Shown: positions 28,364 to 43,458 of the stretch, piece by piece | Numbering within the stretch: the stretch's first letter is position 1 | How the letters are laid out: each line of letters starts with the position of its first letter | Position numbers and translations under genes: made by a program | NCBI GenBank assembly: GCA_050506795.1 | Contig: JBJHCF010000015.1 | Coordinates: forward strand, 33,030 to 97,029 | DNA: 64,000 nucleotides | Source: Opitutia bacterium | GTDB taxonomy: Bacteria > Verrucomicrobiota > Verrucomicrobiia > Opitutales > T3Sed10-336 | Reading direction: 5' to 3' | The notes under the pieces: generated by a model | Databases searched by the model: none | Told to the model about the DNA's origin: nothing | Seen by the model: only the letters and a program-made list of their open reading frames with translations

Positions 28364-29320
28364 ATGAGCTGTTATCCCGCCTCCTGGTTTCTTTGTGGTT
28401 TTTTGGTTTTCAGTAGCGTTGTCTCGGTCGGTCAACCGGCGATTGCCGCGGATAATCCGGAAAGGTGCGAGGGGCGGGGTATTGCTGGTGTCGGCGCAGT
28501 TGACGGGCAGGTGTTGGACCCGGAACAGCCGGCTCCGCGAGAGCTGGTATTGGAAACGTTTCGACAAATGTTGGCTCTGCCTCCGGAGGACCAGATCAAC
28601 TGGGACAAAGCGGTGGAGGCGGGACGGATACCTCCGAACGTCCAGGTTTTGCACGAGTACCTTCGCGATCGGCCGCACGAGGACGTTTGGGACGCGGTGC
28701 CTCCGCCCGAAATGCGGGTCCTCCCAGACGGACGAGAGGTGGAGGTTTTTCCAGTGGAAGTTCTTGGTCCAAACCTGGGGGCGAACGTAACGCAGGAGGA
28801 CCTGGACCGACTGCTGCCGGAATTGGCCGATGCTCATGAACGAATTGAGGCGTATTCGCGAACTCGATACGATGACCCGGACCCCTGGAGTCGCGTTCGA
28901 TTTGAGCCCGAGGATTTTGAAATCGCAATTGCGTACGAGGAGGAACAACCGGGGACGGAGAAGAAGGTGCTTACCCGGGGAGAGGCCGGCATGGAATATT
29001 TCGTGGAGCGAGACCGTCTGCTCGCCGGCCGACATGTCCATCGGGCATGGCAAGTCACGGATGACAGTGGTCGGGCCATTATGTACCTCGATTTTTCCGA
29101 GGAGGGTGCCGAAATTATAGCGCAAGCGACTCGCGAGGCGGTGGGAGGGTACCTTGCCCTGATGGTAAGAGGTGAGCTGCTATCCGTTCCGCGAATTCGC
29201 GCCGAGATCACAGGAGGCGAAGTGAGCATAACCGGTCTTGATCCCGAGACATTCCGGGCGATTATCGAGGAGGGCAAATCGCGTTTTCTGAACGAGAAAA
29301 GCGATCGCCAGGAACAGTGA
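28364..29320 (+). CDS. Secreted protein with a SecD P1-head-like domain
   Basis: Signal peptide; C-terminal LDFSEEGA...LALMVRGELLSVPRIRAEITGGEVSITG. Confidence 0.7.
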   Translation: MSCYPASWFLCGFLVFSSVVSVGQPAIAADNPERCEGRGIAGVGAVDGQVLDPEQPAPRELVLETFRQMLALPPEDQINWDKAVEAGRIPPNVQVLHEYLRDRPHEDVWDAVPPPEMRVLPDGREVEVFPVEVLGPNLGANVTQEDLDRLLPELADAHERIEAYSRTRYDDPDPWSRVRFEPEDFEIAIAYEEEQPGTEKKVLTRGEAGMEYFVERDRLLAGRHVHRAWQVTDDSGRAIMYLDFSEEGAEIIAQATREAVGGYLALMVRGELLSVPRIRAEITGGEVSITGLDPETFRAIIEEGKSRFLNEKSDRQEQ

Positions 29321-29575: not shown

Positions 29576-32500
29576 CTAGCGCACTTCGATCTGCGTTCCG
29601 GCACTTTCCGAGCGAACCTCGGGATTGTAGTAATCGTAAATGGCGGCGGTTGGCGCGGTAACGCGCAGGGGATGTTTCGCGCGGAGTTGATAGCTGAATT
29701 GAAAGGGCTGCCGAACGGGTAGTTCGTGCAGGTAGAGAATAAGCTGATTTCCGGTGATCTCGTAGCGTGCGATTCGTTCTCGGGCGACCAGAATGTCGAG
29801 GGAGTCTGCCAGGAGTTCGAACCCGGGAGGCACGCCCAGGTCGATCAACGGCATGAACACCGGGCCGGCGGTCTCGTTCACGACGGTCACGTGCGCGGTC
29901 AGAAGGTCGTTCACGCTGAGGGTCCCCCGATCGTAGGACACCTCGATAGAGAGTGCCTCCGCATTCAATGGGTCCGGTTTGATCTCCTCGGCATCGTCGC
30001 GGACCCAGTAAGAGGCCGCCAATTGCACGCCGAGGTCGCTCGGGTTCCCGGTCTGCAAACGCACGGCATTTTCACCGGTGACTACCTTCGAGGTCAGCGA
30101 AATTAAACGCATGACTTCATACTCCTCCGGCGTGATCTCCAGGCTTTCTACCGGGTCTTCGTTGAGCGAGACCGCGAGCCGAATCGTTTCCTCGGATGCG
30201 GCCACCGTGGACGTCGCCTTGAGAAGGGCCTGTATCGAGAGAATCGTCGCTTGTGTCGATCCGAAATGCCCCCAGGAGGTTCGCTGTCGTGAGATCCATG
30301 ATACAGCCTCGAGCCCAAGTGGAACGGTTGCCGGGTCGTTCAGAAGCACGAGGGCGGCCAGCGCCGTCGCCTCGACGTCCGCGGCACTGCCCGATGAGCG
30401 GGCTATGCTCCGACTTCCCGCCGTCCAGTAAGCGGCGCCACCTTCCACGCTCTGAACGGTCTGCACCAATCGCCGGGCAAAAGCCCTTCCGGTTGCGTCC
30501 GAGCGATCCAGCGCCAGGAGTGCGTTGGCGGCCAGCGCCGTTTCGTACGGCGTCTCGAATTCTCCGGCGTTTCGGCGCAGCCAAGCCGCCCCGGCTTGCA
30601 CGCGCTGACCGCGCTGGTTTGCCGATGCCAGGGACCAGACCGTGTAGGCGGTGGTTAATTGCCGAGAGCCGAATCCGCGACTGTTCCATGATCCGTCCTG
30701 TGCCTGTTCGCCATAAAGCCAGTCCATTGCGCTCGCCGTCACGCTCGGATCCACGGAGTGAATGCGCGCCATGTCAGTGAACTGCCGGACCCCGTAAGCG
30801 GTCAGCCAAACGTTTGCCGGAGAGCGTCCGAACCAATCGAATCCTCCCTCCGGGGTCTGGAAGGTGAGCAGGCGCTGGTAGCCGGTGTTGATGAGCTTTC
30901 GGGCGCGAACCTCAACTTCCGGCGTAAGCGTCTCTGTCTCCTCCAGGTAGGCGAGCACCAGGACATTGGGATAGTTCACCGATGAAGTCTGCTCGAAACA
31001 CCCGAACGGAACCCGCAACAACCCGTCCATTCCGTCCAGGACTTCAGAGAACCGTGACGGATACAACTTCAGCAAAAGCGACTCCGACCCGGGTATAGCG
31101 TTCGCCGGAAAATGCACGCTCCAATCAAGCCCCTCGCCCAGCGCCTCATTAAAAACCGTCTCAAACCGGCGCCCTGTCGGCACAACTCTTACAATCCGTT
31201 CGATCGCGTCGGATTCCCGCTCGCCGATGGCCGTGACCAGAAAGGGGTGTTCGCCGACCTGGACCGCGCGCAACGGAAAATGAATGGCCCTGACTTCGCC
31301 CGGGCCCAGATGCACGGTCACCTCGGCGCCGTCGCCCAGGGGTTCGAACCATTCGTGCTCTTCGAATCGTAAGCGCACCGTCTGTTCCCGGTCGAGGTAG
31401 TTGTAGCAGACAACCGGAAGGGCCACCTCATCCTCGAGTGAAAGTGCGACCGGCAGGTCGAGATCGACAAAAAAACTCTGAAACACCGGTACGCGCACTT
31501 CTCCTTGTCCCATCCTTCCCCGGGCATCCACGATATCGTAGGTTCCCAGCCAGGTCGTAATCGAATCCGCCAACGCCAGGTCGAGGGTGACCCTGCCGGC
31601 ATCGTCGGTGATTAATTCGGGCGCCCAAAGGAGCGTTTCGGGAAAGTCCCTGCGAACCCGCGGCGACTCACCGCTTGCTTCCTCCTGTGCCTGAACGCTG
31701 TCGCGTTCGTTATCCCGGATGACCATGGCCTGCTCGATTTGTCGCAAGTCGCTCGAGTGCACCGTTCGCCGTGCCGACTCACGAACTTTCGAGACCGTTG
31801 GAACAAACCCCGAAATCAGCAGGATCACCAGGAAGAACCAAATGAACGCCTGTACGATTGGAAATCCTGTGCCCGGCCAGGAAGTCGATTTGCGCCGCAT
31901 CCATTTTCCACCCTTGAATCGAACGATCAATCCGGTCAGCAGAGGCAGCAAAATATGAGCGAACCACAGGAGGAGGACTCCGTGCTCATCAAAATGATGA
32001 TAAGCCCACGGCACGGATCCGCGCAGCAGGGCGAATCCGGCGAGATAAAGCCAGGCGGAGGTTATAAGCACGCTCCGAATACGCGGCCCGTCGGTGTCGT
32101 CAGCAGCCGGGATACTGAGGAGAGCCTTCGAGAAAATCACCAACAAAGCCGCCGCCTCGACAACCGTGATTGTCCAGAAGAACGTGGTTTCGCTGATGAA
32201 ATTCAACCCCCAGCGGACATCGTCCAGGAAGACAAAGGTAAAAAAGACTATAGGCGGCACAATGAGGTGAACCGATGCGGCAATCAGGTAAAGATTCACG
32301 CTTCTCAGCAACGAGTAAGCCGTTTCCCTCGATCTCGAGTTCCAGTCTTCACGGATCGCATTTGAGGTTCTGGCGGCACTGGCCACCGAAAGATAAACCG
32401 GCAAGACCAAGAAAGCCAGGAGGCCGAGTCCAAATGCCCCTCCGACCAATACCCTCACCGTACGCTCCCGGGCACGCTCCCGCTCCATGACCTTTCGCGC

Positions 32501-34573
32501 GCCCGTCGCGACCCGTATCGGGTAGAGCGTCTCGGCGCCCTCGATCAATTCAACGATCGGCCCGAATTGCCGGTGATCGCGAAAAAACTCCAACTCGTCC
32601 CGGTCCCTTAATTCCCGCAGATGATCCAACATCGCCCGAGGAATCAATCCTCCATCCACCAGTTCGTCCAGGGGCGAGCCGCGCGGCTCCGACAACGATT
32701 GAAGCCACGCCGCCGCCAGCGCCTGCCGATGCTTGTCGTCGGTCAGCGCCATTAGAGGCGGAACCCGAAATGCGATTTGATAGCGCGGTTTCTGAATATC
32801 GGTTTCCGTATCCAGAAAATCCTGCAGGAGTCCACGCGCCACCGGCTGAACATGCAGGACGCTTTCGTCGATGACTGAGATTCCGATCGCCCCGGGCGTC
32901 GGCGCGCCCTCGGCGTCGTGCACCGAAAAAGTGATTTGAGCGTCATCGCCCGGCCGGTACGGCCCTTCGCGGTCGAGGCGTGTCTCAACCTGCAACCCGT
33001 CGGCCGGAGAAACAAAGATCGTACGCGTCTGTCCGCGAGTTTGGCCTCCCGGTGAAATGACATACACGTTCAGTCGTACCAGGCCGGTAATATCCGATGG
33101 CAACGGAACCGTGAACCGCGCCGTTCGGTTTCGCATGGGAAACGAACGCGTCAGGACCGTTTGCCGCTCTCGGATGGCGTCGAAGAACACGCGGTTCGCT
33201 TCTTCGGTTGAGTACACCGTCACCTCGGCGATCTCGCCGGTCCGATAAACCGCCTTGTCCGTCCGCACCAGCAACGGCGACCGCCCGAAACTGCCGTTCG
33301 CCTGGAATGTCGCGCTCGCCGTCGCGCCGTCCACTGCACGGGCGATCGCTGTAACGCTGAAGTCTTCTTCGGGGGTAGCGCTCCAAACCAGAACGCCATC
33401 TTCACCAGTGGCATACCTCTCCCCGTCGATCTCCACTTCCGCCGCGGCCGGACGTCCGTCGGGATACGACACGAGAACGACGAAATCGTTCTCCACCCCG
33501 GGAACGACCTGACCGCTTTCGGGAAGAATGTCCACCGTCAACCCGGTGGCCGAAAGGGTCAACGGCCGCACGGCCCGCCCCGCCTGGCCCGCCGTGTCCA
33601 CGACCTCGGCCTCCAACTCCAGAAACGCCTGGCCCGCCATTTCAGGACGCCCCGCGAAGAAATCGGGCAATTGAATGGAAAAGGACATGTCACCCGCATC
33701 ATCCGTCCGCCCTTCGATACGGCCGACCTCCCGCTCCTCCTCTTCCAGTGAGAAAGCCCGCACCACCACTGTGGCGGCGCTCACTGGCTGGCCAAAAAAA
33801 TACTCGGCGCTCAAGGTGCCGCTTATTTCGTCTCCGGGGCGGAAGAATGCCCGGTCGATCTCCAGTTCCACCCGAAAACGGGGAAGAACGTAACGCATCA
33901 CTTCGACGCTCCTGGAGGTGTATTCCTCACCATAATACACCCGGATTTCATAGCGGCCGAGACTGACTTCGTCGGCGAGCGCGAAGTCAGTCGATGCGAT
34001 TCCAAACCGGGAAGCGGCGCGTTCGTCCCGGAACACCAGGGCGCCGTCGGCATTGCGGACCTCGAAGCGAAGACGCTCGTTCGCCGCCGGTTGGCTCCGG
34101 ATCGGGTTGGTTGCCAGCGCGCGCAGGTGAATTGTCTGCCCGGGCTGATAGATGGGTTTGTCGGTGGTCAGCAGAACCCGAAGCGGCCGGTAGACCGTCA
34201 CATTGCGCTCGATCCGGTCGCTGCCCCGCCGCGAACGCGTCGCGATTTCCAGGCGATACTCCCCGGGCGGCAGCGACGGAACAAGAACACCCTCACTGAT
34301 CGTACCGCCCTCATCCGTGGAAAACGACCCCAGACCAGAGGTCCTTCCGTCCGAATCGGTCAGGGAGAAGCGGACCGAGGCGCCTTCAATCGGCTCGCCG
34401 TTTCGACGATTCAAAACCGCAACGCGAATCGCGGTCTCGGTTTCGGCGGCCAACCGGTCCTGGCTGAAGACAAATGTCTCATGGGCCTCCGCCGGACGAA
34501 ACAAATATGCCAGAACACCAACCGCCGCGATCACGCCGAACAGCCAGAGCAAGGGGGATTTGAAGATTTTCAT
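29576..34573 (-). CDS. Alpha-2-macroglobulin family thioester protein with internal polytopic membrane insert
   Basis: TDKPIYQPG and RTDKAVYRTG MG domains, RRDFPETLLW, thioester PFGCFEQ, YDYYNPE. Confidence 0.93.
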   Translation of the reverse strand: MKIFKSPLLWLFGVIAAVGVLAYLFRPAEAHETFVFSQDRLAAETETAIRVAVLNRRNGEPIEGASVRFSLTDSDGRTSGLGSFSTDEGGTISEGVLVPSLPPGEYRLEIATRSRRGSDRIERNVTVYRPLRVLLTTDKPIYQPGQTIHLRALATNPIRSQPAANERLRFEVRNADGALVFRDERAASRFGIASTDFALADEVSLGRYEIRVYYGEEYTSRSVEVMRYVLPRFRVELEIDRAFFRPGDEISGTLSAEYFFGQPVSAATVVVRAFSLEEEEREVGRIEGRTDDAGDMSFSIQLPDFFAGRPEMAGQAFLELEAEVVDTAGQAGRAVRPLTLSATGLTVDILPESGQVVPGVENDFVVLVSYPDGRPAAAEVEIDGERYATGEDGVLVWSATPEEDFSVTAIARAVDGATASATFQANGSFGRSPLLVRTDKAVYRTGEIAEVTVYSTEEANRVFFDAIRERQTVLTRSFPMRNRTARFTVPLPSDITGLVRLNVYVISPGGQTRGQTRTIFVSPADGLQVETRLDREGPYRPGDDAQITFSVHDAEGAPTPGAIGISVIDESVLHVQPVARGLLQDFLDTETDIQKPRYQIAFRVPPLMALTDDKHRQALAAAWLQSLSEPRGSPLDELVDGGLIPRAMLDHLRELRDRDELEFFRDHRQFGPIVELIEGAETLYPIRVATGARKVMERERARERTVRVLVGGAFGLGLLAFLVLPVYLSVASAARTSNAIREDWNSRSRETAYSLLRSVNLYLIAASVHLIVPPIVFFTFVFLDDVRWGLNFISETTFFWTITVVEAAALLVIFSKALLSIPAADDTDGPRIRSVLITSAWLYLAGFALLRGSVPWAYHHFDEHGVLLLWFAHILLPLLTGLIVRFKGGKWMRRKSTSWPGTGFPIVQAFIWFFLVILLISGFVPTVSKVRESARRTVHSSDLRQIEQAMVIRDNERDSVQAQEEASGESPRVRRDFPETLLWAPELITDDAGRVTLDLALADSITTWLGTYDIVDARGRMGQGEVRVPVFQSFFVDLDLPVALSLEDEVALPVVCYNYLDREQTVRLRFEEHEWFEPLGDGAEVTVHLGPGEVRAIHFPLRAVQVGEHPFLVTAIGERESDAIERIVRVVPTGRRFETVFNEALGEGLDWSVHFPANAIPGSESLLLKLYPSRFSEVLDGMDGLLRVPFGCFEQTSSVNYPNVLVLAYLEETETLTPEVEVRARKLINTGYQRLLTFQTPEGGFDWFGRSPANVWLTAYGVRQFTDMARIHSVDPSVTASAMDWLYGEQAQDGSWNSRGFGSRQLTTAYTVWSLASANQRGQRVQAGAAWLRRNAGEFETPYETALAANALLALDRSDATGRAFARRLVQTVQSVEGGAAYWTAGSRSIARSSGSAADVEATALAALVLLNDPATVPLGLEAVSWISRQRTSWGHFGSTQATILSIQALLKATSTVAASEETIRLAVSLNEDPVESLEITPEEYEVMRLISLTSKVVTGENAVRLQTGNPSDLGVQLAASYWVRDDAEEIKPDPLNAEALSIEVSYDRGTLSVNDLLTAHVTVVNETAGPVFMPLIDLGVPPGFELLADSLDILVARERIARYEITGNQLILYLHELPVRQPFQFSYQLRAKHPLRVTAPTAAIYDYYNPEVRSESAGTQIEVR

Positions 34574-35172: not shown

Positions 35173-37695
35173 ATGAGTGCCATTACCTCCAATTTCCTGC
35201 GATCGAGCCGGATCTACCCCGATTTAATCGGTGTGTTCCAGGCGTCGCTTCTGGTGTTCGCTCTCGTTGCCATACCCCTGTCCGCCCGTTCGGAACCGAA
35301 TTGTGGAATATTGGATACCGGTTCTCCGTACCCGGAGTATATTGCGATCAATGCCGACCAACAGGGCGTCGTCGAAAGCAAGGTCACTTTCATTTTCCCT
35401 CACACCGGTTTTAGATTGGAGTGGGGCGATCTAGAGGTTGCGGATCGGAGGTTTTCGGTTGCGTTGGATTGGGAGGAACTCGACGCCGGATGGCAGGTGG
35501 TCGCCGAGTGCTCGAACACCTACTCGCTCGGCCCGCTGGCCGACGGAGCCTATGTTTTTGAGGTTTATGATTTTGCGGGAAACCTCCGGGAAGCGAAGCG
35601 CTTTTTTATCGTGGACGGAAAGCCGCAGGGGCCTCCCGTGCCGGCGGATGTGTTGCTCGACTCGAGACCACTGGAGAGCGGAGTGGAGATCGAGGCCCAA
35701 GTCCGCTTTCTCGAGCGCGGCTATGCGATAGCCAGTTGGGGTGATCCGGAGGTCGGGGACGGAACAATAACGATCGAAGCCGAGGCCGTTCGGCGATCGG
35801 ACAGCACTAATCAGGTTCGGTTTAACCGCCACACTTATGCCATTCACGATCTCGACCACGGCGAATATTCGGTGCGTTTCCTTCTGAAGGGACACGAAAT
35901 GGCCGATCACGTTTTTACCGTTGAAGATCACTCGTGGCGGACCACGGTTCGCCTGTTCACCGAATCGATCACTGACCATCGGACCGCCGGCCACTCCCTG
36001 CAGGTCGATTTCAGGCATCCCGATGGAATTGACACCGATTCCTTCGGCCATCGGGACCTGCGGGTTACCGGTCCGGAGAATTTCGCGCGTCATGCCCGAT
36101 TCGTGGAGTGGACGCATTCTATGGACGCGGCATGGCCGAATGGCGTGATCGCAACTTACGAAATCGATCCTCCGGGAGGGTTTTGGACCGCCGAAGAAAA
36201 CGGGCGTTATGCGGTTTTTCTTCAGGACGGTGCGGTTAAATCCGGCGGCGGCGAGCCGCTTTCCGGCCGGCGGATCGGCGAGTTCGATGTGAGGTTGGAG
36301 CGACCGGCGCACCCGCTCGTCCGAGTCGAGGAACTCGAATTGGTGGTGGACCACTCTTCCGATACTCTGGAATACGGCGTGGAGCTCACGTTGGAAATCG
36401 CCCATAGCGGCATTCAGGTTCGATCGTGGGGAACTCCGGAATCGCGCGAGGGGCTGTTCGCAGTCGAGCTGGATATTGAGACCGACGAGGTCGGGCGTCC
36501 GGCCGTTCGTGAGGAGAGTCATTCTTACAGTCTGGAGGCTTTGCCGGCGCAGGTATTCGACTTCGTGGTGTACGCCTCTAACGTACGCATCGGCTCCAGG
36601 CGATTCGCCGTCACCGACGACGATCCGATCCGGGCACAGGCGATGGCTGGGCGTATCGATCGGCAATCCATTCGGCCTTTCCCGTTGATGGTGTATTACA
36701 CCTCGGTGGATCCTCTCGACCTGGAGTCGATTCACGATACGGCAGTCGATATCTCCGGTCCCGGCGGGTACCGCTTAACCGTTACTCCCGACGAAATTGT
36801 GAGTAACCAAGAAGTGAACGGCGAGTATCGGGTTGGAGTCCTTTACAGCGCTCCGGCGCCCGGTGGTGTGTGGCGCGCGGCCGACAATGGGTATTACCGG
36901 GTTTCCGTTCCGGGGCGCAGTATCCGTGACGAGGCCGGGCGCTTCTTTGATGGTGGCGTTCTATCCGGATTTCTGGTCGCGATTTCCCCTCCGGCCGAGC
37001 CGCCGGCCCGGCCGTTGGTCACGGTATCCCGAAGGATAGTCGATGACGTCGCGTTTGCCGACCTTACCTTCGACCCCCGTGACTCCGGGTGGAGCATTGT
37101 CGACTGGCCCGAAAGACTCCATTTTTCCGGCACGGAGGTCATCGCTTTCCTCGCTATCGACGAAGAGGCCAAAGCCACCGAAACACAATTCCACAGCTTT
37201 CGCCTCGGCAAGCTGCCTCCAGGTTATTATACTTTTCGAGTCGAGGGCTCGAATGGATTTGTCAGCCGCCACACCGTACGCATCTCCAATCAACCTCCGG
37301 TCCGTCCGATCGACGCCTGGCGCACCGCCGCCGGGGAAGCGGCGAATATGCCGGTGGAGGAACGCCAAGAACGGCTTTCGCTGCGGGAATACGCGTTTGG
37401 CCTGGATGGCGAGGAGAACGGTCGCGGGACCATTCTCACCGCCGAAACCGTGACGACGCCGGACGGGGGGACCCGTCTCCTCGCGCGCTACCCGGAAACC
37501 TTTTCCGCGTCCGACTTGAACTACCGCATCGAGATCTCCAATGACCTGAACAACTGGGTCGACGCGACCGGGTTGGTCGAAACGATCGAAGCGGTAAGCG
37601 ATGCCGACGGCCGCATCTGGTGCACTATCCAATTGAACGAACCCGTGACTCACGGCGCCCGCTTCCTTCGGGTTCGTGCGATCCTGAGTGAATGA
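35173..37695 (+). CDS. Secreted multidomain repeat protein
   Basis: Signal peptide, two types of internal repeat, C-terminal YAFGLD...YRIEISNDL..W..RFLRV module. Confidence 0.85.
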   Translation: MSAITSNFLRSSRIYPDLIGVFQASLLVFALVAIPLSARSEPNCGILDTGSPYPEYIAINADQQGVVESKVTFIFPHTGFRLEWGDLEVADRRFSVALDWEELDAGWQVVAECSNTYSLGPLADGAYVFEVYDFAGNLREAKRFFIVDGKPQGPPVPADVLLDSRPLESGVEIEAQVRFLERGYAIASWGDPEVGDGTITIEAEAVRRSDSTNQVRFNRHTYAIHDLDHGEYSVRFLLKGHEMADHVFTVEDHSWRTTVRLFTESITDHRTAGHSLQVDFRHPDGIDTDSFGHRDLRVTGPENFARHARFVEWTHSMDAAWPNGVIATYEIDPPGGFWTAEENGRYAVFLQDGAVKSGGGEPLSGRRIGEFDVRLERPAHPLVRVEELELVVDHSSDTLEYGVELTLEIAHSGIQVRSWGTPESREGLFAVELDIETDEVGRPAVREESHSYSLEALPAQVFDFVVYASNVRIGSRRFAVTDDDPIRAQAMAGRIDRQSIRPFPLMVYYTSVDPLDLESIHDTAVDISGPGGYRLTVTPDEIVSNQEVNGEYRVGVLYSAPAPGGVWRAADNGYYRVSVPGRSIRDEAGRFFDGGVLSGFLVAISPPAEPPARPLVTVSRRIVDDVAFADLTFDPRDSGWSIVDWPERLHFSGTEVIAFLAIDEEAKATETQFHSFRLGKLPPGYYTFRVEGSNGFVSRHTVRISNQPPVRPIDAWRTAAGEAANMPVEERQERLSLREYAFGLDGEENGRGTILTAETVTTPDGGTRLLARYPETFSASDLNYRIEISNDLNNWVDATGLVETIEAVSDADGRIWCTIQLNEPVTHGARFLRVRAILSE

Positions 37696-42116: not shown

Positions 42117-42985
42117 AAAAGTTCAAATACAAGACCATTATTCTTTCGGATGTCCACCTGGGGACGTTCGATTGCAAGATCGAGGAGGTGAACGACTTCC
42201 TCAAGTACACCGAGTCGGAAAAGCTGATCCTTAACGGCGATATCATTGACGGATGGAGCTTGCGAGGATCCAGGCGTTGGGACTCGGGCGGTTGGACCAC
42301 CAATCACACGCGTTTCGTGCGGCTGGTGCTGAAGAAGATGGAGAAAAAGAACACTGAGGTCATCTATCTCCGCGGAAATCACGACGATATCCTCAGCCGG
42401 TTTCTGCCTCTCAGTTTTGTCAATCTTCGCGTCGTGGAGGAGTACGTTCACGAGACTCCCAAAGGCGACTACCTGGTCCTTCACGGGGATGTGCTTGACG
42501 CGGTCACCATGAACTACGTGCTGCTCGCCCATGCCGGAGATATCGGCTACAAATGGCTGATGCGCTTCAACCGGATGTACAACCGTTGGCGCGCCTGGCG
42601 CGGCAAGGAGTACTTTTCGCTCAGCAAATACGTCAAAGGACGGGTCAAGAGCGCCGTCAGTTTTGTATCCCGGTACGAGGAGCAAATTGCAAAACTGGCC
42701 CGGAAGAAGCAATGTGTCGGAGTGATTTGCGGTCACATCCATACCCCGGACGACAAATTGATCGATGGGATTCACTATCTCAATTCCGGCGACTGGGTGG
42801 AATCCTTGACCGCGTTGGTCGAGCACATCGACGGTACGTTCGAAATTATCGAGTATTCGGAATTTCGTCGAAAGCTGGAAGCGATGCACGGCGCTGATGC
42901 CGTTCCCGGGAAGGCTGATTTGGACAAGGATGACGAGTCGCCATGGATAGGTTCACTGCCGTTCGGTTGCGTGCAAACCTCGTAG
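42113..42985 (+). CDS. Metallophosphoesterase, LpxH2/PlcP-like
   Basis: SDVHLG, NGDIIDGW, GNHD, HGD, CGHIH, YLNSGDWVES. Confidence 0.88.
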   Translation: MKKFKYKTIILSDVHLGTFDCKIEEVNDFLKYTESEKLILNGDIIDGWSLRGSRRWDSGGWTTNHTRFVRLVLKKMEKKNTEVIYLRGNHDDILSRFLPLSFVNLRVVEEYVHETPKGDYLVLHGDVLDAVTMNYVLLAHAGDIGYKWLMRFNRMYNRWRAWRGKEYFSLSKYVKGRVKSAVSFVSRYEEQIAKLARKKQCVGVICGHIHTPDDKLIDGIHYLNSGDWVESLTALVEHIDGTFEIIEYSEFRRKLEAMHGADAVPGKADLDKDDESPWIGSLPFGCVQTS

Positions 42986-43458
42986 CGCCCAGCTTCAGCG
43001 GGCGTCTCTGCGGTGTGAGGACGGTCGTCAAGAAGGAACTCCTGCTAAAGCAAGGAGCTACGGTGAATGCTGAACCCGTAGCGCCCAGCTTCAGCGGGCG
43101 TCTTTGCGGTGTGAGGACGGCCGCCGTTTCAAAGAAGGAACTCCTGCTAAAGCAAGGAGCTACGGGGAATGCTGAACCCGTAGCGCCCAGCTTCAGCAGG
43201 CGTCTCTGCGGTGTGAGGACGGTCGTCAAGAAGGAACTCCTGCTAAAGCAAGGAGCTACGGTGAATGCTGAACCCGTAGCGCCCAGCTTCAGCGGGCGTC
43301 TCTGCGGTGTGAGGACGGTCGCCAAGAAGGAACTCCTGCTAAAGCAAGGAGCTACGGTGAATGCTGAACCCGTAGCGCCCAGCTTCAGCGGGCGTCTCTG
43401 CGGTGTGAGGACGGCCGCCGTTTCAAAGAAGGAACTCCTGCTAAAGCAAGGAGCTACG
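42981..43458. repeat. BIME-like tandem array of five 96/102-bp units of paired GTAG-type REPs
   Basis: Units start at 42981, 43077, 43179, 43275 and 43371. Confidence 0.92.

Follow-up and report, generated by a model that had tools for sequence, protein, structure and literature searches.

A pilin-like helix at the bait position of a predicted membrane-threaded thioester macroglobulin from an Opitutia bacterium

What is a segment resembling the start of a type IV prepilin doing in the middle of a bacterial thioester macroglobulin, and is it a substrate of prepilin peptidase (PilD)? The question is raised by a minus-strand gene in a 64,000-nucleotide stretch of an Opitutia bacterium contig (hereinafter the window). 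The original prediction was of an internal prepilin-like segment fused ahead of the thioester half, with Q in place of E at position +5, which would either undergo programmed cleavage or pilus display via prepilin peptidase or be a co-opted membrane anchor. The segment is indeed there: it occupies 31900 to ~31720 of the minus strand, within the ORF 29576-34573, and the residue at +5 is Q908. However, it is not a simple fusion, being the sixth membrane helix of an approximately 400-aa insert that splits the MG6 domain. The features of the gene, which we designate P0001, and of its flanks are as follows:

29576..34573, minus strand: thioester alpha-2-macroglobulin/TEP gene (P0001), 1665 aa, from the ORF, Pfam and sequence matches
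34499..34555, minus strand: hydrophobic N-terminal signal or anchor helix, residues 7-25, without a lipobox cysteine
32852..34483, minus strand: MG domains to the first half of MG6, residues ~31-574 (Pfam MG2, MG3, A2M_BRD)
31655..32851, minus strand: ~400-aa insert that separates the MG6 halves (linker/bait position), residues 575-973
32543..32734, minus strand: small helical subdomain, residues ~614-677, co-occurring with the pilin helix
31922..32452, minus strand: membrane helices 1-5 (predicted), residues ~708-884
31865..31921, minus strand: basic cytoplasmic loop, last residue G903 (pilin position -1)
31799..31864, minus strand: membrane helix 6, pilin alpha1-N-like, F904 (+1) to P925 (+22), Q at +5
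31724..31798, minus strand: pilin alpha1-C-like periplasmic helix, residues 926-950
31658..31723, minus strand: poorly conserved linker, residues 951-972, leading to the second MG6 half, whose start is conserved
31367..31636, minus strand: second MG6 half and start of MG7 (Pfam A2M, residues 980-1069)
30221..31048, minus strand: thioester domain (TED), residues 1176-1451
30989..31000, minus strand: thioester motif C1192-x-E-Q
29609..29854, minus strand: C-terminal MG8/receptor-binding domain, residues 1574-1655
28364-29320, plus strand: flanking gene for a stand-alone SecDF P1-head protein (Pfam)
35173-37695, plus strand: flanking gene for an 840-aa protein, no Pfam match at E 0.001

The Pfam models MG2, MG3, A2M_BRD (436-574), A2M (980-1069), TED_complement and A2M_recep are all recovered in P0001, in order and above cut-off, and the 1665-aa ORF is the sole long ORF with the thioester motif pattern in its genome. 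The motif is intact (GCFEQ at C1192) and near-invariant across 286 relatives, with GCFEQ in 284 and GCMEQ in two. The C-terminal half finds its best matches in CD109 (E 5.5e-52) and A2ML1 (2e-45), with A2M included in a range that extends to 1e-39, as compared to the far weaker matches to the A2Ms of Salmonella (E 7e-10) and E. coli (YfhM, 2e-7); the best fold matches are likewise CD109/A2ML1-type A2M-family proteins. Judged from its sequence, P0001 is a member of the A2M/TEP superfamily closer to CD109 and A2ML1 than to E. coli YfhM. With CD109 (PDB 8s3o, 9fx3), A2ML1 (7q1y), A2M and complement C3 it shares the MG ring, the split MG6, the CxEQ thioester and the C-terminal MG8, and in both P0001 and the metazoan A2M-family proteins the trigger region lies between the MG6 halves. 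While the metazoan bait is a soluble disordered loop, that of P0001 is a predicted six-pass membrane bundle plus the pilin helix, separated from MG6 by just ~20 variable residues.

P0001 also resembles the type I bacterial A2Ms (E. coli ECAM/YfhM and Salmonella Sa-A2M), which PMC4498604 and PMC5764988 describe as inner-membrane-anchored periplasmic thioester traps for proteases (their lipoprotein label is taken here from PDB molecule names); the latter source also pairs A2M with PBP1c in the type I operon. In contrast to these, to which it is linked only by the weak matches above, P0001 lacks a lipobox cysteine, or indeed any cysteine in its N-terminal region, as well as a pbpC neighbour, and carries a membrane bundle in its bait. 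It is neither a type I bacterial A2M nor a signal peptide of class III. A search of its genome (G000, 97.8% complete) with TIGR02073 returned no PBP1c match, and across 14 macroglobulin loci, inspected by BLAST and by eye, there are no recurring pilus, secretion or pbpC neighbours, a pilin gene lying about 6 kb away in one of them. PilC/GspF-family genes are found elsewhere in the P0001 genome (10 domain matches on five contigs). The one neighbour that recurs is a small divergent HTH_17 gene, which lies upstream of the macroglobulin in three of the 14 loci (L211, L214 and L129). Elsewhere in the window, several near-identical head-to-tail repeats at ~42950-43450, visible as repeated translations in overlapping ORFs, separate phosphoesterase-like and phosphate-binding-protein genes (labelled by eye).

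The pilin-like segment is placed in exact pilin register by G903|F904 at 31865/31864 and P925 at +22, and displays the 21 mainly hydrophobic residues, the Pro22 and the amphipathic alpha1-C expected of a pilin. Profile comparisons with this copy gave a divided result: the curated N_methyl, TIGR02532 and DUF1559 models return no match, the sole curated match being to TIGR01710 (GspG) at E 0.06-0.11, but an HMM built from 38 motif-picked pilins of the same genome recovers the segment with an iE of 0.003 among 53,974 ORFs, where the 56 rows ranked above it are all pilin-like by eye. Among the best 120 relatives, PF07963 (N_methyl) is matched by four and PF07596 (DUF1559) by seven; P0024 (PF07963, 27.9 bits) and P0098 (PF07596, 26.4 bits) are relatives that pass these pilin models. 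A pilin HMM scores at least 15 bits in 114 of the 120, which is not a family frequency since that HMM had the insert in its query. Taxa named among the relatives are Verrucomicrobia, Lentisphaerae, Planctomycetes and Sedimentisphaerales, and some of the proteins already bear the database names PulG or DUF1559. The resemblance goes beyond chance, and at the level of sequence residues 904-950 form the alpha-1 helix of a type IV pilin, keeping its register as far as Pro22.

The PVC type IV prepilins (DUF1559/PF07596, N_methyl PF07963) and the P0001 helix share the alpha1 register from +1 to +46 and the N-in/C-out topology. They differ in that the P0001 helix is internal, has lost Glu5 and Cys36, and is followed by no pilin head sequence, and in that the cleavage glycine is mostly lost in its family. 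Among true pilins, 89 of 104 have the Cys36 that only 2 of 119 inserts retain; a signature peculiar to the inserts consists of D39 in 85 and D/E44 in 91 of the 119. A fresh N-terminus is associated with pilin-type G44 (p 0.0007, from rows that include kin and so are not independent), while the corresponding associations with N39 and C36 are not significant (p 0.16 and 0.13, respectively). We also considered whether the helical subdomain upstream might be a pilin head in permuted form: its profile match to the GspG-type inserts is non-significant (E 0.03, probability 1.7%), and a split-pilin fold search with the insert of a relative gave no Foldseek match at E<=0.001 and, with VIA-align, generic helical hairpins (best Z 6.8).

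Six membrane helices are predicted in the P0001 insert, the pilin helix coming last; shorter relatives have two, and the helix count is even in 60 of 66 complete inserts. Lys/Arg per loop (n=70) amount to 3.7, 3.3 and 4.2 in loops 1, 3 and 5 versus 1.0 and 0.5 in loops 2 and 4. Even helix counts together with positive-inside loops thus predict that both macroglobulin halves are periplasmic; the G|F site falls on the predicted cytoplasmic face, as in a prepilin. The AlphaFold model of residues 520-1140 (104 sequences; pLDDT 80, pTM 0.47) has a long helix (686-743), the small helical subdomain and, over residues 905-966, a single unbroken helix some 60 residues long. G903-F904 closes a loop, and MG6 is preceded by a short link modeled at low confidence. 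The helix 905-966 is predicted to run beside the stalk of helix 1; a search for covariation between alpha1-C and the stalk yielded noise only, with ~38 effective sequences. A two-pass relative (pLDDT 83) is modeled as two long helices with a short turn between them and matches generic hairpins only. The alpha1-C lies in a stretch of ~50 residues (medians 50 and 55) which in non-pilin sisters takes the form of a low-complexity tail, and the periplasmic helix fills half of it in the pilin forms. The helical subdomain tracks the pilin helix, with a spacing of at least 134 residues in 107 of 108 pilin forms as compared to a median of 114 in 74 non-pilin forms, in which the median is shorter by 30 residues. 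The linker of residues 951-972 is likely an exposed region, the putative site of cutting. An in-frame methionine just upstream of the segment (M892 at 31900) has a purine-rich stretch upstream of it (31898-31920, minus strand) and the annotated start has none. An internal start there, which would yield a separate prepilin-like product, was considered; among relatives read by eye, Met892 is shared by P0002 only.

Does PilD cut between G903 and F904, with the outcome of programmed activation or of a pilin-anchored thioester half for display? In P0001 itself a basic loop on the predicted cytoplasmic side leads up to a Gly at -1, a prepilin peptidase gene is present in its genome (G000:C9:16956) as in 4/4 other hosts tested, and PMC4471445 reports the Gly preceding the cut to be critical and Glu5 to be dispensable for processing, with leaders of 6-26 aa. 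The family, however, does not keep the site. With the 120 best relatives aligned on Pro22, two of them wrongly, G|F is found in five and is followed by E5 in only four, and G-F-x3-E is not conserved; E5 as such is retained in 74 of the 120 and is absent from P0001. At -1, 43 of these relatives have Arg and 19 have Gly, the latter reaching 16% there versus a background of 9% in the loop, whereas true pilins have Gly or Ala at -1 in 100 of 104 cases; Gly followed by a hydrophobic residue, which could be cleavable, is seen in 13 of 119, and N|F is what P0002, the nearest relative at 61% identity, has at the site. Where the motif is complete, it turns up at scattered points of the tree and has the look of a fresh copy. 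Pairwise identity (n=119) is ~20% at the site, 37% in alpha1-N, 48% in alpha1-C and 21% in the linker, a gradient that runs opposite to that of a cleavage signal. Moreover, P0001 has a proline at +2, and its site is preceded by 903 residues and six predicted membrane helices rather than by a leader of known length; going by PMC9352918, a cytoplasmic cut would be expected to keep the plug membrane-tethered and the MG6 halves interlocked. PilD cutting of the P0001 copy is unlikely, and we regard activation or display by such a cut as highly improbable; as a mechanism of the family it is not supported. The other half of the original prediction, a co-opted membrane anchor, finds support together with the pilin homology.

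The gene is present in 1/401 genomes of the host's order (that of P0001 itself), 3/301 of the class and 13/401 of another order, the last comprising five with a pilin helix, two with a non-pilin helix, four with a GspG-like insert and two partial genes. A contig-level genome scan for relatives recovered mostly distant Acidobacteriota. For the wider family we used the C-terminal half as query and classed 148 of the best 150 representatives at 50% identity: 72 have non-pilin membrane bundles, 41 GspG-like heads, 22 pilin helices and 13 other inserts. With 72 of 148 using non-pilin helices, pilin likeness is not required for the function of the family. Among metagenome loci, the pilin helix is found in 9/79 and the GspG-like motif in 43/61 complete inserts. 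Pfam T2SSG gives weak matches in four of six tested and is found with a CarboxypepD_reg domain in 2/2 Acidobacteriota proteins. Acidobacteriota loci (L010, L020 and others) combine T2SSG-like repeats with CarboxypepD_reg, without membrane helices in the slot. The insert at the bait position is variable in all relatives examined, the bait status of the slot being assigned by position only. On a tree of 56 rows (all 22 pilin forms with 9 chosen and 25 random others) the pilin forms imply at least 11 changes, gains and losses pooled.

Several of the proteins P0126-P0147 form a clade that lost the pilin helix and has a Gly/Tyr/Met-rich low-complexity tail instead. A zf-HC2 anti-sigma domain begins some macroglobulins of the family (L141:1782-7155, P0095, P0098, P0129 and P0139); L141 has an ECF sigma gene directly upstream, its macroglobulin gene being split into two frames in the contig. 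This arrangement suggests a protease-sensing anti-sigma role for the zf-HC2 macroglobulins. The same phylum also has a second, shorter class of thioester macroglobulins, of ~1330-1440 aa and with a plain soluble bait (L037 (G077:C296), L039 and L041).

The outer half of the helix resembles the pilins of its own host. After Pro22, the P0001 helix is identical at 18/24 positions to the host pilin G000:C36:20164-20979, as compared to at most 12/24 for 132 of 133 other inserts. In a search of 81 genomes of the class, the best non-self match is that same host pilin (E 2.8e-8), with 16 non-self matches in the same genome and the best in any other genome at E 1.3e-4. The helix has a different flavour in five genomes of the other order, where it scores a mean BLOSUM of 37-52 against own-lineage pilins versus 21-26 against foreign ones; the P0001 helix scores 44 against its own pilins and 21 against those of the five genomes. 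This host matching is seen in 6/6 genomes, which represent two independent lineages; in the five comparison genomes the sample comprised 30 of the 392 pilin matches. A recent conversion of the insert by the host pilin gene was considered and rejected: only 4 of 21 identical residues share their codon and there is no exact shared word longer than 16 nt. Hence, the match is either old or held by selection rather than a recent copy. P0001 and P0002 are identical at 18/24 positions in alpha1-C versus 5/21 in the membrane part. The inserts of P0037 and P0081 resemble a second stand-alone pilin family, which points to replacement. A stand-alone pilin-like gene of the C36-pilin subfamily in the host genome (G000:C23:46098-46943) itself has no G|F-x3-E.

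A parallel is offered by the anti-sigma/VWA proteins (YfbK-like, PF12450 + PF12034) of the same class, such as L220/L222:792-4190 (G1218:C3). In 90 of their 120 best relatives (P0287-P0406) a membrane helix lies within the first 300 residues. In 47 of the 120 that membrane segment is the same pilin-derived helix, and G/A|F is found in none of the 47; in the genomes checked, one of three such proteins has it. Unlike the macroglobulins, these are unrelated, single-pass proteins, some of which retain more of the pilin. By a by-eye count, the 120 include secretin N-domains of PF03958 in 23 and of PF21305 in five. The 47 reuses without a cleavage site indicate that the uncleavable pilin helix can be reused as a module and is not macroglobulin-specific.

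We propose that the pilin-derived helix at the bait position, uncut by prepilin peptidase, probably has three roles: anchoring the returning chain, forming the stalk and contributing to the bait. The even number of predicted membrane passes would leave both macroglobulin halves in the periplasm, with the pilin helix bringing the chain back out and holding the plug on a rigid stalk. In the A2M family, according to PMC9352918, once the bait is broken its C-terminal end can withdraw from the central channel, which triggers a conformational change. By analogy, a periplasmic protease would cut the outer half of the helix or the short linker (residues 926-972), upon which the plug before MG6 would retract and expose the thioester, and the protease would be trapped while the macroglobulin stays membrane-tethered. 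The outer half, kept like the host's pilins, might act as a decoy, drawing factors that attack or handle those pilins, a role that we consider plausible. More tentatively, envelope sentinels in general, namely eukaryote-like thioester macroglobulins and anti-sigma/VWA sensors, may repeatedly place uncleavable, host-matched pilin pieces (the alpha1 helix in P0001, the GspG-like head in its sisters) at their trigger, such that a protease, phage protein or predator factor aimed at pili springs the covalent trap; we raise this as a possibility rather than an expectation.

The chief competing view is that pilin helices, as the N-in/C-out membrane helices most abundant in these genomes, simply recombine into a tolerant slot, the pilin likeness being functionless and the outer half conserved only through packing on the stalk and the small helical subdomain. 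Raw material is certainly plentiful, with 58-105 TIGR02532 matches per host and at least 38 pilins in the P0001 genome, and the non-pilin helices in the slot of nearly half the representatives, the co-occurrence of the subdomain with the pilin helix, the reuse of the helix by the unrelated anti-sigma/VWA family and the second pilin type that replaced it in P0037 and P0081 all accord with this view. Yet a need for an anchor leaves unexplained the GspG-like heads that fill the same slot without a membrane helix in 41 of 148 representatives, and the host-specific residues are held at the protein level while synonymous sites have diverged, with P0001 and P0002 agreeing far better in alpha1-C than in the membrane part; we consider it doubtful. 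It has also to be asked if the uncut helix is a docking tag that recruits the macroglobulin to a type IV pilus or type II secretion platform where the envelope opens. The retention of E5 in the majority of relatives alongside a well-conserved remainder of alpha1, the PilC/GspF-family genes in the genome and the secretin N-domains often carried by the anti-sigma/VWA proteins with the same helix would fit such a role, but the P0001 copy has no E5, pilus or secretion genes do not recur beside the gene in the 14 loci (the one pilin ~6 kb away apart), and a six-pass bundle with an N-terminal anchor would not be extractable into a filament. This makes docking improbable.

Our literature search found no description of a pilin helix in a macroglobulin bait, the search covering few subscription journals; an A2M bait that is predicted to be membrane-threaded and capped by a piece of host pilin is thus an architecture not found there. 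If the uncut, host-matched helix is indeed part of the bait, the targets of bacterial macroglobulins become open to a concrete question, namely what cuts or binds it. PVC envelope proteins reuse the uncleavable pilin helix as a module, and this explains the misleading pseudopilin and PulG names that such proteins bear.
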